Source of the DNA: Calditrichaceae bacterium
GTDB taxonomy: Bacteria > Calditrichota > Calditrichia > Calditrichales > JBFXGD01
Assembly: GCA_050178385.1 (NCBI GenBank)
Contig: JBFXGD010000003.1
Coordinates: 1-55,722, forward strand
DNA: 55,722 nt
Direction: 5' to 3'
Shown: piece after piece, positions 3,270 through 33,720 of the stretch
How positions within the stretch are numbered: position 1 is the first letter of the stretch
Layout of the letters: the number at the start of each line of letters is the position of its first letter
Program-made: the position numbers and the translations under genes
Notes under the pieces: model-generated
Database searches by the model: none
The model's input: the letters and a program-made list of their open reading frames with translations, nothing else
Told to the model about the DNA's origin: nothing

Positions 3270-4517
3270 ATGAGCAAACGTTTTGAGAGTAAAAAAGAAG
3301 CTGCTTCCCGAATAAATAAAATTCTCGCGGAATTGGAAGGTAATCAGCCGAATGGTGAAGTACACGACACTCTCAAAAAAAATTATGATATATTGCTGAA
3401 GCGGTACGGTGATCTGGAAAAGATTTTCCGGTTTCATAAAGGAATCATTCAAAATATATCCAGCGGGATATTCACGATAGATATGAATGGATATCTGACG
3501 TTCCTGAACAGGGCCGCGCTTGATATACTTGAATACAGCAGTGATGAAATTCTCGGTAAAAAGGTTGAAGTTCTTTTTGAAGACGAAAATCAGATTAATC
3601 GCATCATCAGGCAGATTGTGGATGAGAAGGCCTTGTTTGAGAGTAAAGAGGCGGAGCTTGTTTCGGGTAATGGGAAAATGATCCCGATTGGATTTAGCAC
3701 GACGTTGTTAAAACAATCGGATGACCATACCTTTGACGGCATAATCTTCATCTTTCGCGATATTACGTACATTACCACTTTACGTAAACAAATTGAGCGC
3801 ATGGATCGACTGGCGACTCTCGGTGAACTGGCGGCGGGAATTGCTCATGAAATACGAAATCCGCTCGCCGGAATTAAAGCTTCCGCTCAGGTGCTCGAAG
3901 ATAGTTATAATGAAGATGATTTCAGAACACAGCTGGTGACGAGAATTGTAAAGGAAATTGACAGAAGTAATGAATTATTGAAAAGATTTTTTAACTTTGC
4001 AAGGCCAAATAAACCAAAACAGGATTTTCATGATATTGAAAATATCATTGACGGTGTTTATCTTTTAATGGCAAGCAGATTTAAAAAACAAAAAATTCGA
4101 TACAGTACCAATTTTTCTGAAATTAAACACAAAATTTTTGCTGATGAAAGTCAGATTGAACAGGTCATACTGAATTTATTTATCAATGCTGCCGAAGCCA
4201 TGCCAAATGGCGGCGATATTCTGGTAGAAGTCGGTGAAACCGATGGAATCCGGTTAAGTGAAAATCAGCATGGACATTCTGTTGTATATGTCAGGATTAA
4301 AGATTCCGGGCCAGGTATCCCGGTAGAGAAACATGAAAAGATATTTAATCCGTTCTATACGACAAAGGCGGATGGTGTGGGACTCGGTCTGTCGATTTCA
4401 ACAAGATTACTTGAAGAAAATAATGGCAAGATCGAAATCCAATCCCGGCAGGGTGAAGGAGCGGTTTTTAGTATTTATCTGCCGGTAGTGATCAATAATA
4501 AAACAGAACAGGTTTAA
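3270..4517 (+). CDS. Cytoplasmic PAS-domain sensor histidine kinase (NtrB/AtoS-like)
   Basis: PAS (ISSGIFTIDMNG...NRAA...FRDIT), H-box AHEIRNPL, N-box NLFINA, DSGPGI, FYTTK, GVGLGLSI; no hydrophobic TM stretch. Confidence 0.92.
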   Translation: MSKRFESKKEAASRINKILAELEGNQPNGEVHDTLKKNYDILLKRYGDLEKIFRFHKGIIQNISSGIFTIDMNGYLTFLNRAALDILEYSSDEILGKKVEVLFEDENQINRIIRQIVDEKALFESKEAELVSGNGKMIPIGFSTTLLKQSDDHTFDGIIFIFRDITYITTLRKQIERMDRLATLGELAAGIAHEIRNPLAGIKASAQVLEDSYNEDDFRTQLVTRIVKEIDRSNELLKRFFNFARPNKPKQDFHDIENIIDGVYLLMASRFKKQKIRYSTNFSEIKHKIFADESQIEQVILNLFINAAEAMPNGGDILVEVGETDGIRLSENQHGHSVVYVRIKDSGPGIPVEKHEKIFNPFYTTKADGVGLGLSISTRLLEENNGKIEIQSRQGEGAVFSIYLPVVINNKTEQV

Positions 4518-4519
4518 AC

Positions 4520-4885
4520 ATGGCAAAAAGGCTGCTCATTGTTGATGATGAAGAGACTTTAACGTTTAGTCTTTACCAGAGTTTTATACTATCAGACAAA
4601 GACTATGAAGTAATCACCGCCAATTCGGGTGATGAGGCCCTCACCAAAATTAATGAAAATCCGTTCGATCTGATTATAACTGATATTCTAATGCCGGGGA
4701 TGAGCGGAATCGATTTGCTGAAAAGAGTCAAACAGGATTTTCCTAAGACTGAGATTGTGATTATGACGGCTTATGGTTCTAATGACAGACGTGATGAAGT
4801 ATTGAAGCTTGGCGCAAGATTTTACATAGAAAAACCATTTGAAATGAAAGAATTCAAAAAAATCGTACTAGAAATTCTGGGATAA
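4520..4885 (+). CDS. Single-domain response regulator (CheY-like receiver)
   Basis: LIVDDE, ITDILMPG (phospho-Asp), MTAYG, EKPF; 121 aa with no output domain. Confidence 0.93.
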   Translation: MAKRLLIVDDEETLTFSLYQSFILSDKDYEVITANSGDEALTKINENPFDLIITDILMPGMSGIDLLKRVKQDFPKTEIVIMTAYGSNDRRDEVLKLGARFYIEKPFEMKEFKKIVLEILG

Positions 4886-4886
4886 A

Positions 4887-5531
4887 ATGGCATTAGTAGG
4901 AAACTTAAAGGATTTAAAACTTCCGAGTTTAATCCAATTAAATTGCATGGAACGCAACACGGCAAAGTTGACAATTGAGCGTGGCGGTAAGTTTGGCTTT
5001 ATATACTTTGAAAACGGACAGGTCGTTCACGCGGAATTTGAGCCGGAGATAGGTGAAAAAGCAGTTTACAAGCTGTTGACACTGTATGACGGGACTTTTA
5101 AAGTTGAAAGTGATGTACACGCTCCTGTAAAAACGATTAAAACAAGCTGGAACAGTTTATTACTTGAAGGTCTGCATCAGCTTGATAACGCCGACGAAGC
5201 CCCTGAAAATAGTTTCCACCGCTTGTTTGAGAGGCTGCTTACGGTAAAAGGCGTTCAGTCTGTAAAAATGATTGAACGGGATGGAGCACTGATCGCGAAA
5301 AGTGAGGAAGAGTCCGGTCTTGATGATGACGCGCTTTATGCGTTTTCAATGCTGGAAGCCGGAAAAATTGCTGATATCCTGAGCGTGGCCGAACCGGAAT
5401 TCGTGAGTGTTCTTGTAGGTTCCCTGAGATATGTTATTACAGCATATAATCAATTGTTAATCATTATAATTTTAAGCGATAAAACTAAGCTGGATGTCAT
5501 CTTACCACTGATAAAACAGGCAATGGGTTAA
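4887..5531 (+). CDS. DUF4388/PATAN domain fused to a roadblock-like C-terminal domain
   Basis: N-term LVGNLKDLKLPSLIQL...GFIYFENGQVVHA is typical DUF4388; C-term LLTVKGVQSVKMIERDGALIA resembles the start of roadblock/LC7. Confidence 0.8.
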   Translation: MALVGNLKDLKLPSLIQLNCMERNTAKLTIERGGKFGFIYFENGQVVHAEFEPEIGEKAVYKLLTLYDGTFKVESDVHAPVKTIKTSWNSLLLEGLHQLDNADEAPENSFHRLFERLLTVKGVQSVKMIERDGALIAKSEEESGLDDDALYAFSMLEAGKIADILSVAEPEFVSVLVGSLRYVITAYNQLLIIIILSDKTKLDVILPLIKQAMG

Positions 5532-6544
5532 TGAACACAAATGCACTAGTCATAACGGGGGAACCGCAGCATAAGAATCTGGCAACGCAGTATACACATA
5601 TGTGGCTGCTAATCAAGGATCTCAAGGAATCCCGTTTCTCAGGGTATTTAAAACTGGAATTTTGGGGCTATGAAGGTTTTTTGATTTTTGACACGGGTAA
5701 TATTGTTCAGGCATATGAGCAGAAAGGAAAGCAGATCGGTTCCGGGATTCAGGCCTTATTAGGCATCTATAACCGATTTAGGGAAAAAGACGGATCCATA
5801 AGCACTTTTTTAGTCGATTACGAGTTAGTCCCTTTTCTTCTTGCCATGTTTCAGAATAAAATACTTGATGAGAAAAAAAATCTGAATAGTGATAATCTGG
5901 AAAAGTATATCCAGGAATCATCAAAGAAAACCGATTACGGATTTATAAATATCATTTTCGGTGATCAACAGGCGCGCGCATCGATCTATCTGATGAACGG
6001 AGGGGTAGCTGCTTCGGTTTTGAATAATAATGCGGGTAAACAGGTTTTTGAAAAAGGCATGGCCCGTTTATTTAAAAAAATCCTACAGATAGCAGAAACA
6101 ATAGACACCAATATATCACTTGAAAGTTGCGATGCGCTGCGTTCTTATGAAGAAAGTCAAAAATTTTCCGAGTTGCTCGAGTTGCTTGAAGTATCAGAAA
6201 TTATGCTGGAGCTAAAAAATCGCATTGTGAACGCGATTGCTCCATTAGATGAACATGAAAACATGGAAGCTCTTTTCTCCGGGCTTTGGGAAAAAAGCTG
6301 TAAATCAATAGGTGTGGATGCCGTCCATTATGCGCAAAATCAATTCACAGGCCTCGATTCCATCACAAAAATGAAGTTTGGGGCATTGATTACGAATGTT
6401 TTTACTCAACTTAAGCCATTGTTTGACGATAAATCATCAAAGCACTCCTTTATGGATTTACTGATACATGGTTTTGTGGAGGAGTATTCTGAAAAAATTG
6501 ATAAAATACATTTAAGAGAATATTTCAGCACAGAGATTGCCTGA
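5531..6544 (+). CDS. Hypothetical protein with two PATAN/DUF2226-like repeats
   Basis: LKESRFSGYLKL...EGFLIFDTGNIVQA and a degenerate copy KTDYGFINI...ASIYLMNGGVAAS; helical C-terminus. Confidence 0.55.
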   Translation: MNTNALVITGEPQHKNLATQYTHMWLLIKDLKESRFSGYLKLEFWGYEGFLIFDTGNIVQAYEQKGKQIGSGIQALLGIYNRFREKDGSISTFLVDYELVPFLLAMFQNKILDEKKNLNSDNLEKYIQESSKKTDYGFINIIFGDQQARASIYLMNGGVAASVLNNNAGKQVFEKGMARLFKKILQIAETIDTNISLESCDALRSYEESQKFSELLELLEVSEIMLELKNRIVNAIAPLDEHENMEALFSGLWEKSCKSIGVDAVHYAQNQFTGLDSITKMKFGALITNVFTQLKPLFDDKSSKHSFMDLLIHGFVEEYSEKIDKIHLREYFSTEIA

Positions 6545-6589
6545 TAATTCAGGTATGGTTATGATCTGCAGAAATTAAGGAATGATCAG

Positions 6590-7027
6590 ATGGCTGACAG
6601 GTGGCTGCAGGAAATTTTAAATATTGATGGCGTCCGGGGCGTATACATCGCTTCAGGACGGGGAAATGTCATTGAAAAATTAGGGCTCGACGAAAAGGAT
6701 GCAGTTCTTGAAAAGTTAACGGTGCACATTCTTAGGATTCTTTCCGGACACTATTTACGCAATTTGACTATCACTGAAATTGAATTTTACTGGCAAGACC
6801 AGTATATCATATGCAGGCATACAAACAACATGCTGCTGGTAATTCTTTGCAAAACTCCGAAGGTTTTGTCTTTGCTGCGAATTACATTGAATGTGGCATT
6901 GGCAAACCTCCTTGAAGATAAGAAATTGATAAAACTGATAAAGGATCAGACCGCGGATAAAACTTTTCATATTAACAAAGGGGACTTGGATGAAAGCGAA
7001 GTCCGTCTGATAACCAAACTGAAATAA
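6590..7027 (+). CDS. Roadblock/LC7-like protein
   Basis: LQEILNIDGVRGVYIASGRGNVI start and LLVILC...LSLLRITLN end match the roadblock pattern. Confidence 0.65.
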   Translation: MADRWLQEILNIDGVRGVYIASGRGNVIEKLGLDEKDAVLEKLTVHILRILSGHYLRNLTITEIEFYWQDQYIICRHTNNMLLVILCKTPKVLSLLRITLNVALANLLEDKKLIKLIKDQTADKTFHINKGDLDESEVRLITKLK

Positions 7028-7060
7028 AATATTTCAGTACTATTAAAATGGATTTTAAAG

Positions 7061-7552
7061 TTGGATAAAAAAGATTATAAAAACATAATTCCTCATCCGC
7101 ATGTCGTATTCGGACTTACCGGTTCAAAATCTCCGGCCGAAGTTACATTGCGGTCCGCTGAATGGGCGGTAATAACCCAGGTTGACGGAAACAAAAGCGT
7201 CGATGATATCGCGCAGGTTCTTGCGTTGACGGAAGAAGAGGCAATTGGTTTATTTATCGGATTATATGAAAAAGGCCTGATTGAAATACAATCGACTGAA
7301 AAACCACTGACAAAATTAGTAAATCATGAATTCTTTGAAAATCTGGAAAAGGAATTAATGGCGGTTATCGGACCGGTAGCACCGTTTCTGATTGAAGATA
7401 CTCTTCTTGAAATGGGAGAGGACAAAGATAAATTCATGGTGGAGCGTATTCCGGATTTGATCGAAACAATCAGCGATGAAATTAATGATGACGGAAAAAA
7501 AATAAAATTTCAGAGTGTGATGTTAAACTATATCAAAAAAGGACTTGAGTAA
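7061..7552 (+). CDS. Winged-helix-like protein with C-terminal helical 'IGPxA' domain
   Basis: EWAVITQVDGNKSVDDIAQVL...LYEKGLIEI wHTH pattern; LEKELMAVIGPVAPFLIED; TTG start. Confidence 0.6.
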   Translation: MDKKDYKNIIPHPHVVFGLTGSKSPAEVTLRSAEWAVITQVDGNKSVDDIAQVLALTEEEAIGLFIGLYEKGLIEIQSTEKPLTKLVNHEFFENLEKELMAVIGPVAPFLIEDTLLEMGEDKDKFMVERIPDLIETISDEINDDGKKIKFQSVMLNYIKKGLE

Positions 7553-8303
7553 AGTGAAATTTATCAGCTTAAAATGGAAAATAAGTGGTGTTTTGATCAT
7601 CAGTAATTTATTGCTGGGACTGCTTATCGTTTTTATTGTAAATAAAACCGTGAGCGAAAGTCTTGAGAAAGAATTAATTGAACGCGGAAGAACAATCGCT
7701 GTTAACCTGTCAAGCTTTTCCGCGGAACTCATCCTGGCACAAGATGAGATCGGTTTAAAGCAGCTGATCACAGGAGATTTAAATTTTGAAAGTGTCGAAT
7801 ACATATTGATTCATGACAGCGAAGGACGTATCTTAGCAGATACATATAACGGGCAGGTTCCGGATGTATTGAAAGGAAAATCGTTTGAAGGCCGAACGAT
7901 TGACGAAAAGCCCGAGCTAATTCAATTGCAGGACAATGACTTATCGTGTTACGATATAACGGGTCCGGTTCAGGATGGTTATTTGGGTTATATTCGGGTC
8001 GGGATGAAAAAGGCTTATGTGGACGAAACGGTCAGGACGACCAATTTCATTGTGATTTTAACCATATTGAGTATAACATTTATAGGAATTGTAATTGTAA
8101 TATTTCTTGCAAATCAGATAATTAAACCTATTTTATATCTGACAAAAAAAGCTGACGATATCAGCCAGGGAAATCTAGATGAGAAAATCTTTGTTAAAAC
8201 AAATGACGAAATACAAAGCCTGGGTGAGGCGTTAGAAAGATTGCGGGAAAGTGTAAAAATAGCTTTAGATCGACTCAAAAAACGTCAAACCTTGCGCATA
8301 TAA
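7545..8303 (+). CDS. Two-TM membrane sensor with extracytoplasmic domain and HAMP, no output domain
   Basis: Two hydrophobic segments flank a soluble domain; HAMP IIKPILYLTKKADDISQGNLD...DEIQSLGEALERL; protein ends about 18 aa later. Confidence 0.85.
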   Translation: MSKVKFISLKWKISGVLIISNLLLGLLIVFIVNKTVSESLEKELIERGRTIAVNLSSFSAELILAQDEIGLKQLITGDLNFESVEYILIHDSEGRILADTYNGQVPDVLKGKSFEGRTIDEKPELIQLQDNDLSCYDITGPVQDGYLGYIRVGMKKAYVDETVRTTNFIVILTILSITFIGIVIVIFLANQIIKPILYLTKKADDISQGNLDEKIFVKTNDEIQSLGEALERLRESVKIALDRLKKRQTLRI

Positions 8304-8322
8304 ATAAAGTGAGGGAAATTTT

Positions 8323-8835
8323 ATGGTACAAATAAGAAAACTCAAAGATGGAAGCCGGCAAGTCATATTAAACGGTAAACAATATGACGGTATCACAAAG
8401 GTATTATCTGAGCTTGCAAATAAAACAAAAGCATCAGCGATACTATTTGCGGATATGAGCGGTCAGTTGATAAGCCAGCGTGGCAACACGGAGGATATGA
8501 ATACAACCGTGCTTTCCGCCCTTGCTGCAAGTGATTTTGCCGCTACATCCGAAATGGCGAAATTAGTGGGAGAGGAAGCGAAATTTAAACTTCTCTTTCA
8601 TGAAGGTGAGAAAAGAAATGTATATCTTTCCAATGTCGGCGATAACTTTTTCCTGGTTGTCGTATTCGATGTAAGCGTGACATTGGGTTTGATTCGAATT
8701 TATACCAAAAAAGCGATTGAAGATCTCATCTCAATGCTGGAAGATCAGTCCGGAGATGAACCTGAAGATTCAAATATTATCGATTCAGATTTCAGCACCC
8801 TCCTGGGTGACGCTTTGGATGATACTTTTAAATAA
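8323..8835 (+). CDS. mglB: MglB-family roadblock protein (GAP for MglA)
   Basis: ADMSGQLI, LSALAASDFAATSEMAKLVGE, LFHEGE, VTLGLIR; acidic C-terminal helix; directly upstream of mglA. Confidence 0.9.
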   Translation: MVQIRKLKDGSRQVILNGKQYDGITKVLSELANKTKASAILFADMSGQLISQRGNTEDMNTTVLSALAASDFAATSEMAKLVGEEAKFKLLFHEGEKRNVYLSNVGDNFFLVVVFDVSVTLGLIRIYTKKAIEDLISMLEDQSGDEPEDSNIIDSDFSTLLGDALDDTFK

Positions 8836-8870
8836 TAGGTCATAAACGGTTTAAGTCGCGAGGATGGAGA

Positions 8871-9455
8871 ATGTTTATAAATTGGGCTTTACAGGAAATA
8901 AATTTAAAAATCGTCTATTACGGTCCGGGAATGAGTGGAAAAACAACGAATCTTGAGTATATACATACTAAGCTCGATCCGTCGCTTACAGGGGAACTTG
9001 TCTCATTAAAAACAAAAGAAGACCGCACCATATTCTTTGATTTTATGCAGATTGAAGTCGGCCGGATCAAAGGGAAAAAACCAAAATTCAATTTATACAC
9101 CGTTCCGGGACAGGTCTATTACGCTTCGAGCCGTAAAGTAATTTTAAACGGGGTTGATGGAATCGTATTCGTTGCTGACTCACAGCCGCATCGGATGGAA
9201 GCCAATATTGAGACACTGCTGGATCTTGAAAGCAATATAAAGCAGGACGGGCAGACACTTGAGAAATTCCCCTGGGTAATACAATATAATAAGCGTGATT
9301 TGCCCGGTGTGGAGTCGGTTGATGTGTTGCAAAAAAGACTGAACTTCTTCAATGTGCCACATTTTGAAGGTGTAGCGGTAAAAGGTGACGGAGTATTCAA
9401 CACACTGAAATCAGTGATTAATCTGGTTGTACAGAACGTCCAAACGCAGCTCTAA
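8871..9455 (+). CDS. mglA: MglA-family small Ras-like GTPase
   Basis: KIVYYGPGMSGKTTNL (G1), DRTIFFDF, LYTVPGQ (G3), QYNKRDL (G4). Confidence 0.95.
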   Translation: MFINWALQEINLKIVYYGPGMSGKTTNLEYIHTKLDPSLTGELVSLKTKEDRTIFFDFMQIEVGRIKGKKPKFNLYTVPGQVYYASSRKVILNGVDGIVFVADSQPHRMEANIETLLDLESNIKQDGQTLEKFPWVIQYNKRDLPGVESVDVLQKRLNFFNVPHFEGVAVKGDGVFNTLKSVINLVVQNVQTQL

Positions 9456-11844: not shown

Positions 11845-12390
11845 TTGTATATTCCAAGCAAAATTTTCTTTACGAAGGGGGTCGGCAAAAGCCGGGAGCA
11901 ATTAACAAGTTTTGAAATGGCCTTGAGAAATGCAGGTCTTGCGCCATTTAACCTGGTCGCTGTTTCTAGTATTTATCCTGCAGGGTGTGAAATTATTGAC
12001 AGGGAAGATGGTTTAAAAGAGATGACCGCCGGACAGATTGTACATGCGGTTTACAGCAGAAATGCAACAAATGAGCCTAACCGTCTGCTTGCCGCTTCTA
12101 TTGGGGTCGCTATCCCAAAAGATGTCACGGCATACGGATATCTAAGTGAGCATCATAGTTTTGGTGAAATTGAAAAGAAAGCCGGTGATTATGCTGAAGA
12201 TCTTGCCGCAGAAATGCTGGCTACGATTCTTGGTGTGGAATTTGATCCGGAAGCAAGCTGGGATGAAAAAAGACAAATCTGGCAAATTTCTGACAAGATC
12301 GTGCAGACATCGAATATTACTCAATGCGCAAATGGTGACGAAAATGGTTGGTGGACCACAGTGTTTACAGCAGCTGTTTTGCTTCCCTAA
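11845..12390 (+). CDS. pdaD: Pyruvoyl-dependent arginine decarboxylase
   Basis: LTSFEMALRNAGLAPFNLVAVSSIYP with Ser-Ser self-cleavage site; YGYLSEHH; upstream of agmatinase. Confidence 0.9.
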   Translation: MYIPSKIFFTKGVGKSREQLTSFEMALRNAGLAPFNLVAVSSIYPAGCEIIDREDGLKEMTAGQIVHAVYSRNATNEPNRLLAASIGVAIPKDVTAYGYLSEHHSFGEIEKKAGDYAEDLAAEMLATILGVEFDPEASWDEKRQIWQISDKIVQTSNITQCANGDENGWWTTVFTAAVLLP

Positions 12391-12448
12391 TAAAATGGTT
12401 CAAAACGTTTTCAGGGAAGAGATGATTTGCATAACTTATTGAATTTAC

Positions 12449-12491
12449 AATCCCGGATCTTTTGGCATTCTGCCTAACCGGGATTTTTTTT
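12449..12491 (+). terminator. Terminator-like hairpin between pdaD and speB
   Basis: AATCCCGG / CCGGGATT outer stem, GGCA-TTC-TGCC inner stem, T-run. Confidence 0.55.
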
Positions 12492-12522
12492 AATTTTAAA
12501 GAAATTAAGGAAAGTGTTTTAG

Positions 12523-13371
12523 ATGAATGATTTTTTGGGTATAGAATCACCATATACCGATTACAATTCGGCCCGCGCAGTGGTGATCCCGGTTCCGTTT
12601 GAACATACGACAAGTTATGGCCAGGGTGCAAAACATGGGCCTCAGGCGATTATTGATGCTTCCGCATACGTTGAATTCTACGACGATGAATATGATTGTG
12701 AAATGTATAAGTCAGGAGTGCACACAACCCCGGCTCTCAATTTTACAAATAACCCGGAATCGGATTTTGATAAGATCACTGAGGAATTCAGGCGTGTGCT
12801 TAACGATGGTAAGTTTCCGGTCGGTCTGGGGGGGGAGCATTCGGTAAGCTACCCCACATATCGCGCGTTTCATGAAAAGTATGATAATATCAGCGTCTTG
12901 CAGTTCGATGCGCACTCGGACCTGAGGGAGTCCTATGAAGGAACACCCTATTCTCATGCCAGTGTTATGCGAAGGATATATGATCTGAACAAAGATATTG
13001 TTCAGGTTGGCATTCGCTCGCAGTGCATCGAAGAAGCGCAATTTATAAAAGAAAACAGAATAAATACTTTTTTTGCCCATTCATTGAGAAAAAACGGTCT
13101 GAGTAATGACATTATTGACCGGTTAAATGAAAATGTATTTATAACAATAGATGTGGATTATTTTGATCCATCTATCATGCCGTCTACAGGAACTCCTGAA
13201 CCCGGCGGATTTTTATGGTACGAAACGGTGGATTTTTTATCACGCGTGTTTAAGAAAAAAAATGTAGTTGGGTTTGATGTAGTTGAACTCAGCCCCAAAA
13301 CAGGCGTCATCCATCCTGATTTTTTCGCGGCAAAATTGATATATAAAATGTTGACCCTAAAATTTCTGTGA
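12523..13371 (+). CDS. speB: Agmatinase
   Basis: GGEHS, FDAHSDLR, TIDVDYFDP, TGTPEPGG ureohydrolase motifs. Confidence 0.92.
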   Translation: MNDFLGIESPYTDYNSARAVVIPVPFEHTTSYGQGAKHGPQAIIDASAYVEFYDDEYDCEMYKSGVHTTPALNFTNNPESDFDKITEEFRRVLNDGKFPVGLGGEHSVSYPTYRAFHEKYDNISVLQFDAHSDLRESYEGTPYSHASVMRRIYDLNKDIVQVGIRSQCIEEAQFIKENRINTFFAHSLRKNGLSNDIIDRLNENVFITIDVDYFDPSIMPSTGTPEPGGFLWYETVDFLSRVFKKKNVVGFDVVELSPKTGVIHPDFFAAKLIYKMLTLKFL

Positions 13372-17297: not shown

Positions 17298-17915
17298 ATG
17301 GTAGAGCTTTTTTTAGCCGGTGGGATATTCATGTGGCCGATCCTTGGTCTGTTGATCATTGGGCTGGCTTATTCATTGGAACGCTTATGGACTTTAACAC
17401 GGGCATCTGTAAATACTAGAAAATTTTTGACCAGGTTACATGCGGCATTACAGGAAGGTGGCATTGAAGGCGCTGCCGCGGAATGTGAAAAAACAACTGG
17501 CCCGGTCGCTTCAATATTACATGCGGGTCTTTCAAGAGCCGATAAAGGATTGTCGCATGTGGAGAAAGCAATCACAAACGCTGGATCTATCGAAATGGCA
17601 TTTCTTGAAAGAGGTATGGTTGTGTTGACAACGGTTATCGTTCTGGCACCGATGTTAGGATTTACCGGAACAGTAGCCGGTATGGTTGGCGCTTTTGACG
17701 CTATTAAGAAAGCTAATGATATTTCTCCTGCTATCGTAGCGGGTGGTATTTCTCAGGCTTTGTTGACCACGCTTTTTGGTTTGGTTGTCGCTATGATCAT
17801 TCAGGTGTTTTACAACTTCTTCACATCCAGAATTGATAAATTGATCATTGATATGGAAGAAAGTTCCGTCGAGCTAATGGATGCATTAATTGAAATGCAA
17901 GATTCCAATAAATAA
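17298..17915 (+). CDS. exbB: MotA/TolQ/ExbB proton channel protein
   Basis: APMLGFTGTVAGMVGAF, AGGISQALLTT; SD AGGAG. Confidence 0.9.
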   Translation: MVELFLAGGIFMWPILGLLIIGLAYSLERLWTLTRASVNTRKFLTRLHAALQEGGIEGAAAECEKTTGPVASILHAGLSRADKGLSHVEKAITNAGSIEMAFLERGMVVLTTVIVLAPMLGFTGTVAGMVGAFDAIKKANDISPAIVAGGISQALLTTLFGLVVAMIIQVFYNFFTSRIDKLIIDMEESSVELMDALIEMQDSNK

Positions 17916-17940
17916 TTACCCTGTTAATTGAGGAAGAAAT

Positions 17941-18348
17941 ATGTTACTCGGTAAAAAACGAGATAAAAACGTTGAAATTCCGTCAGCATCCTTGTCTGAC
18001 ATCGTTTTCCTGTTGTTGATTTTCTTCCTGGTAACAACATCCATTGATACGGAAAAAGGTTTGGATTTGGTACTTCCCGCTCCGGGTGATATCGAAATTA
18101 AAGTTCCAAAGAAGAATCTAACCAATCTGCTTGTGAATGCACAGGGACAAATTTTGTTGGATAACGAGCTCATTGAACTCTCTGATGTCGCGCGGGCGGT
18201 AAAAGAGAAGATTTATGAAAATGAGTTGTTGATCGTTTCTGTGAAAACGGATAAAGAAACAAGATACGAAACTTATATCAAAGTTTTAGATCAACTAAAA
18301 AAGGCGGAAGCAAAACGTATATCACTGGCTGAACCAGAAGAAGATTAA
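17941..18348 (+). CDS. exbD: ExbD/TolR protein
   Basis: SLSDIVFLLLIFFLV TM with conserved Asp. Confidence 0.9.
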   Translation: MLLGKKRDKNVEIPSASLSDIVFLLLIFFLVTTSIDTEKGLDLVLPAPGDIEIKVPKKNLTNLLVNAQGQILLDNELIELSDVARAVKEKIYENELLIVSVKTDKETRYETYIKVLDQLKKAEAKRISLAEPEED

Positions 18349-18366
18349 CACTAGAGGCTGTATATT

Positions 18367-18783
18367 ATGAAATTTTCGAAAAAAAGTAAGATAAATGTTG
18401 CGATCCCGACGGCATCCATGCCGGATATCATCTTCATGCTTTTGATATTTTTTATGGTCGCGACTGTTTTTAAGCAATATTCGGGCTTGAAAGTACAGCT
18501 TCCTGATGCCGTAAAAATTAAGAAAATCGAAGGATCGAAACGCCATGTTGCCACAATTTGGCTGGATAGAGACAGCCAGATAATTTGTGATGACGTAGCA
18601 ATTAAAAAAGTTAATGATTTGCGTAATGTCGTATATCAAAAATTAGTAACTGATCCTCAACTTATCGTCGCGTTGAAAATTGATAAAACGGCCAATATGG
18701 GAATTGTAAATAAAGTGCATCAGGAACTAAGGAAAGCAAGTGCACTTCGAATTAATTATTCAGCAATACCAGGAGTATTTTAA
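18367..18783 (+). CDS. exbD: ExbD/TolR protein (second copy)
   Basis: SMPDIIFMLLIFFMV TM with conserved Asp. Confidence 0.9.
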   Translation: MKFSKKSKINVAIPTASMPDIIFMLLIFFMVATVFKQYSGLKVQLPDAVKIKKIEGSKRHVATIWLDRDSQIICDDVAIKKVNDLRNVVYQKLVTDPQLIVALKIDKTANMGIVNKVHQELRKASALRINYSAIPGVF

Positions 18784-19413
18784 ATGAAGGCATTGAAAAA
18801 AAATCCTGAAGCTGACTTGAGACTAAAATATAGAAAAGCCCTGGAAGCCGCAATTGCAATATCATTGTTAATACTGATATTGGTGTTTTATGCATTTAAG
18901 AAATTCGAAACCGGGATGAGCCTGCCGGAACAACCGGACATCATCATCGAAACGATCGAAATTCCTAAAACCCAGCAGGTACAGAAACCACCACCTCCTT
19001 CAAGACCATCTATACCGGTGGAATCTGAAGATGAAGATTTGCTGGACGATGTAACAATTGCGGAAACAGAGGTAAACTTTGAACGATTTGAAGAATTGCC
19101 TCCTCCTCCTCCACCTGAAGAAGATGAAGTTTACGAATTCTTCGCCGTTTCTGAGAAACCGGTGCTGGTTCACAAAGAGACACCGCAGTTTCCTGATTTG
19201 GCTCGTAAAGCCGGTATTGAGGGAATTGTAGTCATTACCGTAACAATCAGCAAAACAGGTGTTGTTCAGGATGCGAGAGTTTTTAAATCGATACCTATGT
19301 TAGACGAGGCAGCTTTGGAAGCGGCTAAGAAGTGTACCTTCAAACCCGCGAAGCAAAGAGATAAATTTGTAAAAGTTAAAATGAACATACCTTTCCAGTT
19401 CAAACTTAAATAA
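18784..19413 (+). CDS. tonB: Energy transducer TonB
   Basis: N-terminal TM, poly-Pro linker, FPDLARKAGIEG...LDEAALEA...FKPA C-terminal domain. Confidence 0.9.
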   Translation: MKALKKNPEADLRLKYRKALEAAIAISLLILILVFYAFKKFETGMSLPEQPDIIIETIEIPKTQQVQKPPPPSRPSIPVESEDEDLLDDVTIAETEVNFERFEELPPPPPPEEDEVYEFFAVSEKPVLVHKETPQFPDLARKAGIEGIVVITVTISKTGVVQDARVFKSIPMLDEAALEAAKKCTFKPAKQRDKFVKVKMNIPFQFKLK

Positions 19414-25099: not shown

Positions 25100-25128
25100 T
25101 TGACATGAATTGGGTGATCATCTAAATT
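25100..25128 (+). promoter_or_regulatory. Sigma70 promoter of tRNA-Gly
   Basis: TTGACA-N17-TAAATT, 12 nt upstream of the tRNA. Confidence 0.7.
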
Positions 25129-25140
25129 TAACAAATTATG

Positions 25141-25212
<72 letters not shown>

Positions 25213-25431
25213 CTTATCAATGTGATAAATGTTCTAAAGTCCGATAGATAGGCTTTTTCATATAAAGAAAGTGTTCGGGTTCATGAGACACAATTTAACT
25301 GAAAAAGAGCCAAATATCAGCGTGCCTGGTGACGTTTATCACAGACTCAAGCACACCAATTCTTTTAATTGAACTCATCTTCACCAGAACCGTCTCTAAT
25401 TTTGCACATAAATTAATGTATGGAGGATTTC

Positions 25432-26268
25432 ATGAGAAGGTCTTATTTTTTGTTGGGAATCATAATAACAGTTTTGTTTTCATTTATAGTGCTGAATGCG
25501 CAAATCTATCAGCAGGTTCCCAATGCTGGTACAGTGAATTGGCAGGATCAGATTATTCGGGCAACCGGTATCGGAGCTCCCAATCCTAATGTACCTTTGG
25601 CGGCACAGCGTGCCGGTGCAATCAGGGCGGGGGAAATGGATGCTCTGCGTCAATTGCTGGAAACCGTAAAAGGAATGAATCTAACATCAGAAACGATTGT
25701 GAGAAATGCCATGGTCGAGAGTGATGTGATTACATCGAAAGTCAGCGGTGTAGTGAAAAACTTTAGAAAGGTAGACACAAGATATCTAAGTGATGGAAGT
25801 GTAGAAGTCGATGTTGAAATCCCCATCAGCGGTATTTTACTTGACGCATTGTTGCCTCAACAGCTTGGCGGTGTGAATCCCGGCATGATGTACAATGCCG
25901 CTCAGCCTCAACCAACATATCAAAACGCGGTATATACAGGGTTAATTATCGATGCCCGGGGTTTAGGACTCCGGCCGGCGATGGCGCCGAAAATAGTGGA
26001 TGAAAGCGGTAATGAAGTATATGGTACCGGTTATGTAAGTCGTGATTATGCTGTGCAGATTGGTGTAGTAGGGTATGATAAGGATCTGAATCGGGCGAAA
26101 GCCAATGAACGGGTAACCAATAATCCTGTGATTGTTAAAGGTCTTAAAGTATCCGGATCAAATAAAGCTGATGTTGTGATCAGCAATGCTGATGCCGCGA
26201 ATATAATGGCGGCAGCAAAAAACCTAAATTTTATGGAACAGTGCAAAGTAATGATCATTTTAGATTAA
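25432..26268 (+). CDS. Exported LPP20-like protein
   Basis: Signal peptide; IRATGIGA...AIRAGEMDALRQLLETVKG LPP20-like pattern; C-term YTGLIIDARG domain; start moved to ATG after SD GGAGG. Confidence 0.65.
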   Translation: MRRSYFLLGIIITVLFSFIVLNAQIYQQVPNAGTVNWQDQIIRATGIGAPNPNVPLAAQRAGAIRAGEMDALRQLLETVKGMNLTSETIVRNAMVESDVITSKVSGVVKNFRKVDTRYLSDGSVEVDVEIPISGILLDALLPQQLGGVNPGMMYNAAQPQPTYQNAVYTGLIIDARGLGLRPAMAPKIVDESGNEVYGTGYVSRDYAVQIGVVGYDKDLNRAKANERVTNNPVIVKGLKVSGSNKADVVISNADAANIMAAAKNLNFMEQCKVMIILD

Positions 26269-26281
26269 CAGGAGAAAAAAC

Positions 26282-27448
26282 ATGCGAAATGCTATGATAA
26301 AATTGTTCGTGTTATTTGTTGCTTCTGTTTTTATTTTTCAGGGATGCGCCGCGCCTAAGGAGAGAAAAGCGGAATCTATTCTGGATACTCCGGAATATCA
26401 TTACAATCAAGGTGTGAAATTTTTAAATAATAATGACCTCAGTAGTGCGGAACGTGAATTTAATCTTGCCAAAGGCTTAAAAGCAAATTTTGCTCCGGCT
26501 TATGAGGGGCTTGGAATCGTGAAATTGGAAAAAGGCGATCTCGCGGGCGCTGAGGCTCTGATTAAGGAATCACTCAGCAAAGATGGTGATTGGATACCCG
26601 CAAAAGTAGCAAAAGGACGTCTTTACATCGCTCAGAATAAATTTGAAGATGCGGTGAATGAGTTAAAAGACGCTGTTGATGATGTCAATGGCTCAAAATC
26701 CGTCAAAGATAAGAAGGGTGTAAAAAAAGACGCTTATTACTGGATGGGTGTTGCCTACAAACAATGGGGCAAATATATCGAAGCGCAAACTGCATTCCAG
26801 AAAATTCTTGAAATAGACAATACTGATATGCGGGCAAGCAAGGCAATTAAGGAACTGGCGGAATATCAGGCCGCGGTTGCCGGTCAGTCGCCAGAATTAA
26901 GGAAAATAGCGGCTCAAAAAGAAATTACCCGCGCTGATGTAGCCATTCTGTTTGTCACCGAATTACCAGTCGAAAAAATCTTCAGGCAATCACCATCACA
27001 GCAAAAAATAGGTTTCCAGGCTCCCGGACAGACGATGATGGGGAAACGTGAAACGGCACCCGGCGCCCCTGAATGGGCCGCGACCGATGTGGCGGAAGAT
27101 TTTTGGGCAAAATCTTTTATTGACAAGAGTCTTCAACTGGGAATCATTGATAAGTACCCCGATGGTACATTCCGCCCCAACGAAAAAGTAAATCGTGCTG
27201 AATTTGCCAGATTGATTGAACATTTTCTTAGGAAAGCATGGGATGATCCCAAAATGGAAACACAATTTTTCGGAGAAATGTCTCCATTTGCAGATGTCCT
27301 GAATACTTCACCGGTATTTAACTCCATCATGGTTGTATCAACAAGGGGAATTATGCCGGGTTTAGAAGATGGTACTTTTAAACCTCTCCAGGTTGTATCA
27401 GGTGCGGAGTCGCTTAACATTATTAGAAATTTGAAATCCAAGTTTTAA
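26282..27448 (+). CDS. Lipoprotein with TPR repeats and C-terminal S-layer homology (SLH) domains
   Basis: Lipobox FQGC; TPRs (HYNQGV, AYEGLG, AYYWMGVAY); SLH DV..FWA...GII..YPDGTFRPNEKVNRAEFA and FADV...GTFKP. Confidence 0.85.
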   Translation: MRNAMIKLFVLFVASVFIFQGCAAPKERKAESILDTPEYHYNQGVKFLNNNDLSSAEREFNLAKGLKANFAPAYEGLGIVKLEKGDLAGAEALIKESLSKDGDWIPAKVAKGRLYIAQNKFEDAVNELKDAVDDVNGSKSVKDKKGVKKDAYYWMGVAYKQWGKYIEAQTAFQKILEIDNTDMRASKAIKELAEYQAAVAGQSPELRKIAAQKEITRADVAILFVTELPVEKIFRQSPSQQKIGFQAPGQTMMGKRETAPGAPEWAATDVAEDFWAKSFIDKSLQLGIIDKYPDGTFRPNEKVNRAEFARLIEHFLRKAWDDPKMETQFFGEMSPFADVLNTSPVFNSIMVVSTRGIMPGLEDGTFKPLQVVSGAESLNIIRNLKSKF

Positions 27449-27502
27449 AGTCAGGGGGAGGATTTTCCTCCCCGTTTAAATAAATTGAAATGGATTAGCG
27501 AT

Positions 27503-28729
27503 ATGAAAAAAATTTTTACGATTGTCTTTTTAGTGTTTTCGATTACAAGCCTGGTTTTATCGCAATATCCCGGAAGTTCGGCCGGAGAATCGCCGGATGA
27601 TACCAAAACCGTAGTGGCGACCGGATTCGGAGCAATTCTAAGCGGTGATATGGTCAAAGCGAGGGAAGATGGTGTTAATGACGCTCTGAGAAAAGCGGTT
27701 GAACAGGTTGTTGGTACGATTATTGACGCGAACACGGTCACAGAAAATTTTATGACGCTTGAAGATAATATCTATTCACGGACGACCGGATACGTGCAAA
27801 ATTATGATGTTATTGGGACGAATCAGCGGCCGGATAATTCACTCGAAGTAACAGTACGGGCTGTGGTTAAGGCCGGAAATTTAAAAAATGACCTTCAGGG
27901 GATATTGACGGTTTTAAAAAGTGAAGGAATGCCGCGATTAATGGTAGTCATCGATGAGCAAAATATCGGCCAGTATCACGGCCGGATTGTCTCCGAATTG
28001 AACACAACCGAAACGGCTTTGATGAATGAATTAATGTCCTTTGGATTCCCGTTTGTAGATGCGGCTACAGCAAAGTCGAATGTCGCACAGGATGTATTAA
28101 GCGCCGCAATGACGGGAGATTCTCAGGCCGCCGCCAACATCGCCAAGCGAAGCGGCGCGGAAATTTTAATAATCGGCACAGCGAGAACTACGGTGACACA
28201 ACCCCCGGTTATGCAGTCGTCGGGAATGAAATCCTGCAATGCCAATTTGACCGTACGCGCTGTACGCGCTGATGACGCGGTTGTGATGGCGACAAGCAGT
28301 GCGCGCGGAGTTAACGCGCATATTGATGAGTTAACCGGAAGCACGCTCGCTTTGGAAAAAGCCGCAAAACAGTCAGCGGTCGAATTAAAAAACAAAATTA
28401 TCGAGAAATTTCAGAAGAATCAGTTTGAAACACGTCAAATTCAGCTGCAGATATTGAATATTAGTAACTTTAGTCAGTTAAACACTTTAAAAAACAGTCT
28501 TCCGTATTATGTGCGAGGACTTAAAAAAGTGTATCAGAGAAGCTTTGAATCCGGAACGGCATTGTTTGATATTGAAATAACTCAAAAAGCAGAAACCGTT
28601 GCCGCTGAATTATCAAACAAGACGATTGAGGGACTCAATCTCGAAATCGTATCTGTAACACAAAACAAAGTCACCGCTAAAATAATATCCGGTGATGGCG
28701 GGGTTAATCAGAGTGGAGGCCTTAGATGA
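27503..28729 (+). CDS. Exported protein with FlgT N-terminal-like domain
   Basis: Signal peptide MKKIF...; VVATGFG...AREDGVNDALRKAVEQVVGTII FlgT_N-like pattern, then PRLMVVIDE alpha/beta domain. Confidence 0.65.
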   Translation: MKKIFTIVFLVFSITSLVLSQYPGSSAGESPDDTKTVVATGFGAILSGDMVKAREDGVNDALRKAVEQVVGTIIDANTVTENFMTLEDNIYSRTTGYVQNYDVIGTNQRPDNSLEVTVRAVVKAGNLKNDLQGILTVLKSEGMPRLMVVIDEQNIGQYHGRIVSELNTTETALMNELMSFGFPFVDAATAKSNVAQDVLSAAMTGDSQAAANIAKRSGAEILIIGTARTTVTQPPVMQSSGMKSCNANLTVRAVRADDAVVMATSSARGVNAHIDELTGSTLALEKAAKQSAVELKNKIIEKFQKNQFETRQIQLQILNISNFSQLNTLKNSLPYYVRGLKKVYQRSFESGTALFDIEITQKAETVAAELSNKTIEGLNLEIVSVTQNKVTAKIISGDGGVNQSGGLR

Positions 28730-29640
28730 CAGGTAAAATAAAGCTTTTTGTGGGTTTATTTTCTTTTATCTTCCTTCTATCCTTTGCGAATGCACAGGAC
28801 CTAGCAGGTTTAAAAAAGCGAGTCGCTGTTTTTAATTTTGAAGATAAGGCGCAGTATGGGCATAATATCGGCAGCGGATTGTCGGATATGCTTGTAACAG
28901 CTCTTGTCGAAAGTAAAAAATTTATCGTGATTGAACGGGCGGAGCTGGACCAGATATTGAAGGAGCAGGGGCTTGGCCTGAGTGGAGCAGTTACCGAACA
29001 GTCAGCGGCAAAAGTTGGTCAGCTTCTGGGCGTAGAACTGATGATTACGGGTAGTGTGAGTGAATTTGGTACTAAAGAAAATAAAATCGGAGGCGGACTG
29101 AGTAAGCTGAGCGGTTTTCGATTAGGAGTGGAAAAAAATTCAGCCCGGTCAGTAGTAGATATCAGGCTTGTTAACACCACTACAGGTGAGATAATTACAT
29201 CAAAACAAGCGGTCGGTGAAGAATCAACGACCAGCCTGGATAATGTAGGCGTGGAAGGTATTGATTTTCATAATTCATCCACATGGGATAATACAATTCT
29301 TGGAAAAGCCGCGAGAAAATCTGTTAACGAATGCGTCGAGATAATCACATCGGGGATGCAAACTATCCCGTGGCAGGGGAAAATTATCAAAGCGAATGAT
29401 GACGGAACCGTCTTCATGAAGCCAGGTTCGCAGAGCGGTGTGATGAGCGGTATGGTATTTTGGGTTTTTCGTCCGGGGGAAGATCTGATTGATCCGGATA
29501 CAGGGCTGTCGCTTGGCTCGGAAGAACGAAAAATTGGACAAATTCAGATTGTGAGTGATGTAGCGGGTGGAAAAGCAGCCAAAGCTATAGTTAAAGGCGG
29601 TGGTGGTTTCGATACCGGTGATTTGGTAAGGGTAAAATAG
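28726..29640 (+). CDS. CsgG/HfaB-family protein with FlgT C-terminal-like domain
   Basis: KKRVAVFNFE, LSDMLVTALVES..F.VIER..LD.IL.EQ, GSVSEF, VDIRLVNTTTGEI; C-term GEDLIDPDTG.SLG...GDLVR. Confidence 0.85.
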   Translation: MTGKIKLFVGLFSFIFLLSFANAQDLAGLKKRVAVFNFEDKAQYGHNIGSGLSDMLVTALVESKKFIVIERAELDQILKEQGLGLSGAVTEQSAAKVGQLLGVELMITGSVSEFGTKENKIGGGLSKLSGFRLGVEKNSARSVVDIRLVNTTTGEIITSKQAVGEESTTSLDNVGVEGIDFHNSSTWDNTILGKAARKSVNECVEIITSGMQTIPWQGKIIKANDDGTVFMKPGSQSGVMSGMVFWVFRPGEDLIDPDTGLSLGSEERKIGQIQIVSDVAGGKAAKAIVKGGGGFDTGDLVRVK

Positions 29641-29654
29641 AACCGGGGGCAAGA

Positions 29655-30404
29655 ATGAAATATAAAATATCATTCCTTATTGTTATAGCACTTGGTATGG
29701 CAATAATACTAAGTTCTTATACTTTCCAGAACAAGGAAGGCGTGGCAAAGATCAGTTTCCCGCTCGGCAATGTTCTTGTCCTTAAGGTGGGCGAAAAACA
29801 GATGTCCAAAGCAGTATTTAATATGAATCTGTTTGAAGGGGACAAAGTTAAAACACAACCCCAGTCACGCTGCGAGATTAAATTTAAGGACGGCAGCATC
29901 GTCAGAATCGATGAGCAGAGTATTTACACCATCGAAAAAGCCAGCATTTCGGACAAGGAAAAGAATGTTCAGTCAGAGCTTTCAATAGGAAAGCTTTGGG
30001 CGAACGTAAAGAAGCTCACCAAATCTTCTGACAAATGGAAACTCAGAGGTCCTTCCGCGGTTGTGGCTATAAGAGGTACCATTTACAGAATGGATGCTGA
30101 AGCCGATTCAACGACACTCGTAAAAGTTTACGAAGGCAGCGTGGGTGTTGGTTCTCCTGGATGGCAAATGGGTACCGTCGAACCGCAGAAGAAGCCGGGG
30201 CCGCCTCAGCAGATTAAAGGTCCGGAACAGATACAAGGGCCAAAACAGGTAACTTTGGAAGAGTGGTTTGAGATTATTAAAGCCCAGCAGCAGATAATGG
30301 TAAAACCTGATGGCACCTTCCAGAAATCAGAGTTTGACATTGCGGATGATGCGAAGAACAGTTGGGTTCAGTGGAATCTGGAAAGAGATAAACTAATCGA
30401 ATAA
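29655..30404 (+). CDS. Exported FecR-domain protein
   Basis: GDKVKT..QSRCEIKF.DGSIVRIDEQS, PSAVVAIRGT, VKVYEGSV. Confidence 0.8.
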   Translation: MKYKISFLIVIALGMAIILSSYTFQNKEGVAKISFPLGNVLVLKVGEKQMSKAVFNMNLFEGDKVKTQPQSRCEIKFKDGSIVRIDEQSIYTIEKASISDKEKNVQSELSIGKLWANVKKLTKSSDKWKLRGPSAVVAIRGTIYRMDAEADSTTLVKVYEGSVGVGSPGWQMGTVEPQKKPGPPQQIKGPEQIQGPKQVTLEEWFEIIKAQQQIMVKPDGTFQKSEFDIADDAKNSWVQWNLERDKLIE

Positions 30405-30432
30405 AAAAAGGAGCGTCACGCTCCTTTTTTTT
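30403..30432. terminator. Bidirectional intrinsic terminator between convergent genes
   Basis: A-run GGAGCG-TCA-CGCTCC T-run. Confidence 0.88.
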
Positions 30433-33003: not shown

Positions 33004-33720
33004 ATGGCTGAAAGCAAAATTGGTTGTGCCCGGCCTATAGGATATGTGGTCGGTGCTAAGGGTAAGGATGAGCTAAGAAAAGACCGGGATGAAAATAAGG
33101 AGAATTATATGATCACAGCAAAAGTTGGATCCCTTGCGCCGGATTTTGAGGCGCCGGCGTATTTTCAGGGAAAATTTACAGAGATCAAACTCTCAAATTT
33201 CCTCGGGCGCTGGGTATTACTCTGTTTCTACCCGGGTGATTTTACCTTCGTCTGAGCGACTGAAGTTTCAGCGGTCGCTGAAAAATATGTAGAATTACAA
33301 AAATTGGGAGTGGAAGTTATTTCAGTAAGTGTGGATAGTGTATTTGTGCATAAAACATGGAACGATCAGGAACTCTCAAAGATGATTGGAAGGGATATCC
33401 CGTTTCATATGGCATCGGACGGACCGGGAAATCTCGGGAAAGTTTATGGCGTTTATGATGAAGCTGCCGGAGTCGAGCTCCGGGGACGTTTTATCATTGA
33501 CCCGGACGGAGTCATTCAGGCTATGGAGGTAATGACCCCTCCCGTTGGCCGTGATATCAGGGAAACGATCCGACAGGTCCAGGCTTTTCAGCATGTCAGG
33601 AAAACAAAAGGGGCTGAAGTTTGTCCCGCAGGGTGGCAGCCGGGTAAAAAAACACTTAAACCCGGTCCGGATCTTGTCGGACAGGTTTGGAAACATTGGA
33701 ATCCTAAAAAAGATTTATAG
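33004..33720 (+). CDS. prxU: Selenocysteine-containing peroxiredoxin (AhpC/Prx1 type; UGA 33253-33255 read as Sec), 238 aa
   Basis: ORFs 33004-33255 and 33304-33720 are in the same frame; read-through gives [19 protein letters not shown], placing UGA at the peroxidatic Cys; C-term EVCPAGW. Confidence 0.92.
33266..33283 (+). promoter_or_regulatory. Putative bacterial SECIS hairpin
   Basis: TTTCAGC-GGTC-GCTGAAA; the G-initial loop follows a 17-nt spacer after the UGA. Confidence 0.75.

Follow-up and report, generated by a model that had tools for sequence, protein, structure and literature searches.

Several described systems resemble the locus considered here. The H-ring of the Vibrio flagellar motor is composed of FlgT, FlgP and FlgO (3w1e, 8z5n, 9yds), and Campylobacter has a FlgP disk (9hmf). 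As far as the accessible text of two reports goes, FlgO and FlgP of the H-ring are lipoproteins that pair through beta-sheets, the motor attaching to the membrane without a pore (10.64898/2025.12.02.691832), and FlgT is bound to the LP-ring (10.64898/2025.12.04.692373). FlgP rings owe their continuous sheet to a hairpin inserted in the SHS2 domain, and ring oligomerisation correlates with this insert, according to the available part of PMC12222027. Treponema TP0624 (5JIR) consists of domains D1 and D2 and a divergent OmpA-like D3; the accessible text of PMC5104382 gives it no established function, proposes an envelope-stabilising role, and notes ~50 homologues with D1-D2 only, while neither its gene neighbourhood nor a link between D1 and FlgP is described in that text. 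The present locus is a cassette of five genes, G1 to G5, at positions 25432-30404 of a 55,722-nucleotide stretch (the window) of contig JBFXGD010000003.1, from the Calditrichaceae bacterium assembly GCA_050178385.1. The cassette exists as described, is conserved, and its genes are linked in function; it belongs neither to the flagellar nor to the curli systems. Its product may be a stand-alone, probably ring-shaped scaffold in the periplasm, bracing outer membrane against wall, a reading by analogy to which we assign a probability of about 0.45. No description of the cassette was found in the literature searched, which was thin on subscription journals.

The five proteins of the cassette

The components of the cassette are as follows.

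25432-26268, + strand: G1, open reading frame (ORF) of 278 amino acids, predicted to be exported by a signal peptidase I (SPI)-type signal
25672-25749, + strand: FlgP-type beta-hairpin insert of G1, 26 residues, from a gapless alignment to FlgP
26282-27448, + strand: G2, ORF of 388 amino acids, predicted lipoprotein
27503-28729, + strand: G3, ORF of 408 amino acids
27713-27790, + strand: FlgP-type beta-hairpin insert of G3, 26 residues, from a structure model and a gapless alignment to FlgP
28726-29640, + strand: G4, ORF of 304 amino acids
29655-30404, + strand: G5, ORF of 249 amino acids, predicted to be exported
30403-30432, no strand assigned: probable bidirectional intrinsic terminator between G5 and a convergent glycosyltransferase gene, from folding energy

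The original prediction, which was made from the sequence alone, described five co-oriented genes with export signals that end at one terminator, and this layout holds. All five ORFs lie on the + strand with intergenic gaps of 13, 54, -4 and 14 bp (from ORF coordinates), and each protein begins with a hydrophobic segment that reads as a predicted export signal. The hairpin after G5 has an A-tract 5' and a U8 tract 3' and folds with -15.8 kcal/mol (z = -4.1, 0 of 200 shuffles), although it is absent from the list of a consensus terminator scan. Because the convergent glycosyltransferase gene faces this hairpin, the terminator probably works in both directions. The domain calls made at the same time for G2 (TPR and SLH lipoprotein), G3 (FlgT-N-like), G4 (CsgG plus FlgT-C-like) and G5 (FecR domain) are borne out by the matches given below, as is the kinship with FlgT and FlgP.

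By sequence comparison, G1 is a full-length relative of domains 1 and 2 of TP0624. Its profile matches 5JIR, the best solved relative, over positions 32-276 (E-value 2.8e-10), so that the D1-D2 tandem spans the whole protein. G1 ends at D2, whereas TP0624 continues into the OmpA-like D3; an SLH lipoprotein gene follows G1 instead. A 278-residue form of G1 is on record (P0121), and a weak search found no OmpA domain among six longer homologues. The Pfam LPP20 match (16.6 bits) falls under its cut-off, but relationship to FlgP is supported by profile matches of domain 1 to C. jejuni FlgP (9hmf, E-value 8.4e-10) and to Vibrio FlgP. The hairpin insert aligns with that of FlgP without gaps, and in 140 of 142 sequences 26 residues separate the SHS2 helix from the following strand. 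None of 25 G1 orthologues shows a lipobox-like pattern. The AlphaFold model of G1, built from 21 sequences, is poor (pLDDT, a predicted score from the local distance difference test, of 54), and its Foldseek run matched 5jir alone. Among the homologues, P0241 carries C-terminal Hint domains, and P0245 and P0246, one of them labelled Synergistaceae, have a long repeat-rich N-terminal extension that is coiled-coil-like in look.

G3 consists of an SHS2/FlgT-N domain with a hairpin insert, a middle domain of the CsgG/FlgT-M/PelC fold, and a C-terminal domain that is ferredoxin-like by the order of its secondary structure and occurs in up to several copies in some homologues. Its N-terminal domain is common to G1 (hhalign, 98.4%). 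No Pfam family scores over its cut-off in G3 itself, but FlgT_N is matched in 25 of 68 homologues. The AlphaFold model (pLDDT 87.9) places the hairpin strands at residues 52-60 and 63-72, and its top Foldseek matches are the FlgT structures 8z5n (E-value 4e-10) and 3w1e (E-value 3e-9). For the middle domain, CsgG (Z 11.8), FlgT-M (11.5) and PelC (11.4) are tied in VIA, with root-mean-square deviations of 2.7-3.4 over 131-147 aligned residues; TolB, LptE and LpoB stand lower in the same list. The insert segment is 26 residues long in 147 of 148 sequences, and its alignment to FlgP is again gapless. Of 27 G3 orthologues, one shows a lipobox-like pattern. The family is large, with 2,085 clusters at 50% identity (E-values up to 1e-30); of 10 representatives looked up, two clusters yielded taxon names. 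G3 also shows a weak likeness to Leptospira LipL46 (NCBIfam NF033164) along residues 37-369 (E-value 4e-19), but its 68.6 bits lie far under the cut-off of 400, and G3 itself has no lipobox.

G2 is the only cassette protein with a lipobox, which is centered on Cys22 and followed by about four TPR repeats and, from about residue 215, an SLH domain. Pfam recovers TPR and two SLH repeats (75.7 bits). Cys22 is invariant in all 36 homologues, and a lipobox-like pattern is found in 23 of 25 orthologues. In the first two TRAE-like SLH motifs the Arg is kept in 35 and 33 of 36 sequences, and the Gly of the third in 36 of 36; the SLH domain was retained in all 16 G2 neighbours scanned. G2 is the only SLH match in its genome. 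In that genome the CsaB-family pyruvyltransferase (PF04230, PS_pyruv_trans) has no match, other pyruvyltransferase families being outside the search. Among 86 genomes of Calditrichota, a phylum that we take to belong to the Gracilicutes, PF04230 is matched in six, three of them among 47 cassette carriers and three among 39 non-carriers. The accessible text of bioRxiv 10.1101/2021.05.31.446380 describes co-occurrence of SLH and CsaB as practically absent in Gracilicutes, and the SLH domain of Negativicutes as binding polyamine-modified peptidoglycan. The SLH domain of G2 may also serve in protein binding. G2 resembles the OmpM/SlpA tethers of diderm Terrabacteria in that a membrane-attached protein bears the SLH domain and would in this way join membrane and wall. 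However, those proteins carry a porin barrel, whereas G2 has a lipid anchor and TPR repeats and mostly occurs without a CsaB-family gene. No porin barrel is fused to G2 or lies within the cassette, in the window (Pfam) or in the 27 Calditrichota loci.

G4 consists of a CsgG-like domain (Pfam CsgG, 126.9 bits) with two Gly-rich amphipathic hairpins and a C-terminal domain related to FlgT-C and TsaP. Profile comparison gives CsgG at an E-value of 2e-10 and the C-terminal region of TsaP, for the tail, at 1.5e-7; the G4 homologue in locus L085 scores 26.7 bits against FlgT_C, just under the cut-off of 27. There is a weak LpoB match in the Pfam scan and none to FlgO, although the domain fused to a G3 homologue in P0334 matches both FlgO and CsgG. 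G4 is homologous to the middle domain of G3 (96.9%), but its hairpins are longer. FlgT-like domains are thus distributed over two proteins, as had been proposed, but not as a plain division into N and C: G3 combines N, M and a different C-terminal domain, and G4 an M/CsgG-like with a FlgT-C-like domain. Relative to E. coli CsgG, the first hairpin segment is nearly equal in length (33 against 32 residues), whereas the second is shorter (34 against 40) and contains 8 rather than 15 hydrophobic and 2 rather than 5 aromatic residues. Alternating hydrophobic residues are conserved in both. G4 also shows a 9-residue gap at a loop that we take to be the constriction of CsgG. G4 has no lipobox, and a lipobox-like pattern appears in 1 of 25 orthologues. 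Two related arrangements were observed elsewhere. On contig C94 of the source genome (G000:C94:1829-4126) a TPR-CsgG-FlgT_C-like paralogue of G4 directly precedes a gene that reads as barrel-like from its sequence, and at L059:4485-8753 a G1-G3-G4-G5 cassette comes after a similar TPR-CsgG-FlgT_C-like gene and two FadL-family barrels.

G5 contains a FecR domain (Pfam, 58.9 bits) and a conserved C-terminal extension. The domain comes after the signal-like segment, and so the cytoplasmic N-terminal domain of FecR anti-sigma signalling is not present. The other two features of that system, an adjacent extracytoplasmic function (ECF) sigma factor and a TonB-dependent receptor, are likewise lacking beside G5 in the window, and neither is conserved in the 27 loci. 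No lipobox-like pattern occurs in 26 orthologues; likeness to LipL45/Lsa33 is weak and far under the cut-off, and look-alikes in the Atlas include LysM-FecR fusions. CHASE2 proteins were seen near related genes. At L091:5839-11115, G1 and G3 are separated by a CHASE2 cyclase, and at G000:C27:15558-21971 a CHASE2 protein has a 794-residue neighbour and, two genes off, a FecR paralogue of its own. The source genome has two CHASE2 proteins. CHASE2 is matched in 84 of the 86 Calditrichota genomes and, being near-universal, its co-occurrence is uninformative as a link to the cassette.

Distribution of the cassette relative to flagella, curli and secretins

G3 was matched in 49 of the 86 Calditrichota genomes, 47 of them strongly (E-value 2e-52 or better); the two weak matches, both on the N-terminal domain of G1, were dropped. 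These genomes are related, so the co-occurrence counts carry no statistic. In 27 Calditrichota loci, which include 20 of the 47 carriers picked for spread and two loci on the same contig, the order G1-G2-G3-G4-G5 is complete in 23, and one further locus ends at a contig edge after G4. In the remaining three, all or probably all from genus g21, G4 is absent and G3 adjoins G5. The flanking genes vary between families. A G4 orthologue (E-value 1e-40 or better) is present in 41 of the 47 carriers and in 1 of the 39 non-carriers, so that presence of G3 and G4 agrees in 79 of 86 genomes; all three g21 genomes with G3 are among the six carriers without G4. In family f3, none of 26 genomes matches G3 strongly. 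Four aberrant loci were also noted. In L041 (G039) and L042 (G042), G1 and G2 are in pieces, with stops within the G1 match of G039, which may be decay or assembly error. In L064 (G030) and L077 (G002), short divergent G1-G2-G5 or G1-G2 cassettes without G3 and G4 sit where the cassette of the window lies on the chromosome.

Outside the phylum, G1 was matched in 48 of 215 sampled genomes, and 37 loci from the 35 best-scoring of these were examined, with three Calditrichota loci added. Partners within 6 kb on the same strand were G2 at 14, G3 at 17, a G4-like gene at 8 and G5 at 10 of the 37 loci. At least one partner is found at 22 loci and all four at three, with the order shuffled in some. 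The relatives carry the labels KSB1, Nitrospirota, Synergistaceae, Latescibacterota, Myxococcota, Thermodesulfobacteriota, Fibrobacterota and Fidelibacterota. The genes therefore co-occur widely, both in the phylum and outside it. In addition, several natural fusions join cassette domains. Two of six longer G1 homologues (P0242 and P0244) include a CsgG/LpoB-like domain, which in one of them sits between D1 and D2. Among 13 long G3 homologues, P0334 has a CsgG/FlgO-like domain at its N-terminus and P0336 a G1-type domain 1 in the same place. Because CsgG-like domains of the generic kind fuse readily with many partners, the fusions are supportive but not proof.

The cassette does not track with flagella. 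No flagellar or curli family was found among the 41 plus 9 window ORFs scanned, in agreement with the original prediction, and FlgI, FliG_C, the curlin repeat and CsgF have no match in the source genome, which is 94% complete; CsgE was outside the search. Across the 86 Calditrichota genomes, cassette and FlgI occur together in 22, the cassette alone in 25, FlgI alone in 28 and neither in 11; the corresponding counts for 53 well-assembled genomes are 15, 14, 20 and 4. Thus 25 of 47 carriers lack FlgI, and outside the phylum it is present in 15 of 35 G1 carriers. Tracking with secretins was also rejected. Both occur in 40 genomes, the cassette alone in 7, a secretin alone in 34 and neither in 5, so that secretins are found in 74 of 86 genomes, with the cassette and without it. 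Four well-assembled carriers (G040, G042, G044 and G047) have neither FlgI nor a secretin; the source genome has one secretin and four OmpA-domain proteins. No recurring ATPase, motor, enzyme or substrate gene accompanies the cassette in the ORF clusters of the 27 loci, and no ATPase, motor or substrate gene recurs in 96 chosen of 298 neighbours scanned.

Compared with the H-ring and the basal disk, the cassette shares the SHS2 domain with hairpin (G1 and G3), and with the H-ring also the FlgT-M/CsgG-fold domains (G3 and G4) and a FlgT-C-like domain (G4). However, the source genome has no flagellar genes, and G1, G3 and G4 are not lipoproteins whereas FlgP and FlgO are. FlgT of the H-ring carries N, M and C in one chain, while the cassette distributes N, M and the ferredoxin-like domain to G3 and M and C to G4. 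The TP0624-D2, TPR-SLH and FecR parts have no counterpart in the H-ring.

A candidate envelope scaffold and its alternatives

The arrangement that would best fit the proposed scaffold is one in which the FlgP-type hairpins of G1 and G3 let them polymerise into a ring or disc, lipoprotein G2 keeps this ring or disc at the membrane and probably grips the wall through its SLH domain, and optional subunits are supplied by G4 and G5. Physical assembly, ring shape and a mechanical role would follow from likeness to known rings; the anchoring of G2 would be in the outer rather than the inner membrane, its SLH domain would bind the wall mostly without CsaB, and the G4 hairpins would contact the membrane shallowly. 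Several observations argue for the scaffold. The gene order is kept in most loci while the flanks change, and G3 and G4 largely agree in presence. The fixed 26-residue insert, together with the correlation of insert and ring described in the available part of PMC12222027, points to a ring, and so does the fold that the M domain of G3 and G4 share with the ring formers CsgG, FlgT-M and PelC, a PelC dodecamer being named among the fold neighbours of the G3 middle domain. Three kinds of wall-binding module are tied to the gene set, SLH on G2, LysM on G5 look-alikes and, in the accessible text of PMC5104382, an OmpA-like domain on TP0624; these, the fusions and the presence of Omp85 in outside carriers are consistent with a scaffold between membrane and wall. 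That it stands alone is suggested by the four carriers without FlgI and secretin, and by the lack of a conserved machine gene nearby.

Other observations weigh against this interpretation. Fifteen of the 37 outside G1 loci have no partner within 6 kb. PF04230 is matched in 6 of 35 outside G1 carriers and 1 of 14 outside G2 carriers, and the Omp85 count (35 of 35 tested outside G1 carriers) has no control set. TolB, LpoB and LptE share the same folds yet are not known to form rings. Whereas FlgP, FlgO and CsgG are lipoproteins, G1, G3 and G4 are not. Since 39 of the 86 Calditrichota genomes have no G3 orthologue, and the source genome has its OmpA-domain proteins, a brace of this kind is not essential. 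TP0624 is reported in the accessible text of PMC5104382 to be monomeric in solution and crystal, without diaminopimelate binding. The known FlgT/FlgP rings form round the flagellar LP-ring as a template, according to the available parts of 10.64898/2025.12.04.692373 and 10.64898/2025.12.02.691832, and no template is known for the cassette.

Of the alternatives, an accessory collar round another outer-membrane machine, either a pilus secretin or a beta-barrel, in the manner of FlgT on the LP-ring or TsaP on PilQ, survives best, although we consider it unlikely. The TsaP match of the G4 tail, the secretins in 40 of 47 carriers and the PelBC system (a PelC ring with a barrel) among the fold neighbours are consistent with such a role, as are the two FadL-family barrels directly upstream in L059 and the barrel-like gene after the paralogue on C94. 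However, secretins are present regardless of the cassette, the four well-assembled carriers mentioned above lack both secretin and FlgI, and the 27 loci show no conserved barrel gene next to the cassette.

Somewhat less probable is a set of small non-ring periplasmic adaptors that tether or regulate wall remodelling, similar to LpoB or to the TPR, LpoB-like and Lpp20 lipoproteins of Helicobacter and Campylobacter. The monomeric state of TP0624 and the weak LpoB match of G4 would fit adaptors, and amidase genes lie near two of the outside loci scanned (L076 and L086), with a SpoIID-family gene near one. The accessible text of PMC11394524 ties the TPR lipoproteins HP0018 and Cj0089 to an LpoB homologue and to envelope maintenance, and that of PMC11756786 reports that H. 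pylori Lpp20 self-interacts weakly and that its deletion has no motility or barrier phenotype. On the other hand, the insert length is fixed in G1 and G3, their profiles match FlgP by sequence and not Lpp20, and the 27 Calditrichota loci have no wall enzyme as a conserved neighbour of the cassette.

A further alternative makes G4 a CsgG-like membrane-spanning pore for an unnamed substrate, with the other proteins as its periplasmic support. Its CsgG score, the near-equal length of hairpin 1, and the conserved alternating hydrophobics in hairpins that are longer than those of the G3 M domain all favor a pore. Nevertheless this is improbable. The likeness to CsgG (4uv3) is confined to the core fold and hairpin 1; G4 has no lipobox, a gap at the presumed constriction loop, a shorter and less hydrophobic hairpin 2 and an extra C-terminal domain. 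G4 is also dispensable, being lost in genus g21, absent from 6 of 47 carriers and found beside 8 of 37 outside G1 loci. Curlin and CsgF are unmatched in the source genome, and no substrate gene or ATPase is conserved nearby. The role in secretion that had been suggested for the complex is weakened accordingly, while its kinship with FlgT and FlgP stands. Given that the H-ring motor attaches to the membrane without a pore, shallow membrane contact or pairing of the G4 hairpins would, by analogy, be at least as likely as a channel. Equally improbable is a signalling relay across the envelope that has the cassette as its periplasmic arm, with FecR-domain G5 passing the envelope state to a CHASE2 cyclase, as the gene order in L091 and the wide occurrence of CHASE2 might suggest, because CHASE2 is present regardless of the cassette, appears at 1 of 40 G1 loci (neighbours were scanned for part of these) and, on C27 of the source genome, has a FecR paralogue of its own.

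A broader form of the scaffold reading is doubtful but carries wider implications: a widespread free-standing ring from outer membrane to wall, whose SLH domain reads a non-pyruvylated ligand, and which is the non-flagellar stock that supplied high-torque motors with their FlgT/FlgP/FlgO rings. If true, it would give TP0624, and possibly LipL46, a first mechanistic context; the gene set already links spirochete TP0624 and, more weakly, LipL46 to a defined cassette. Were these parts to assemble without a flagellum, the origin of the additional periplasmic rings on high-torque motors would become testable, and an SLH tether lacking CsaB would, in a lineage with an outer membrane, depart from the published division into SLH/OmpM and Pal/OmpA tethers.

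Other features of the window

Two features upstream of G1 are not conserved parts of the cassette.

25100-25128, + strand: promoter-like site
25141-25213, + strand: tRNA-Gly(CCC)

A mobile element beside this tRNA gene was considered but is not supported, as close relatives have the upstream genes in common and the cassette occurs throughout the class. A tblastn search for G1 in plasmids gave no match, and the locus has no listed RNA holder. The region 17298-19413 contains a TolQ/ExbB-like gene, two genes that we take to be ExbD-like and a TonB C-terminal gene; this group is near the cassette in close relatives only. About 12 kb upstream of the cassette, at 11845-13371, a pyruvoyl-dependent arginine decarboxylase and an agmatinase form a putrescine route; since polyamine-modified peptidoglycan is a ligand of certain SLH domains, this is of speculative interest. 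At 3270-9455 a histidine kinase, a response regulator, MglB and a GTPase that reads as MglA-like, with several unannotated genes between them, are a possible polarity module in a non-flagellated genome. Finally, a peroxiredoxin is split over two ORFs at 33004-33720. The first presumably ends at the position of the catalytic Cys, and the second gives a match to NCBIfam PrxU starting at position 98, so that selenocysteine read-through seems likely.

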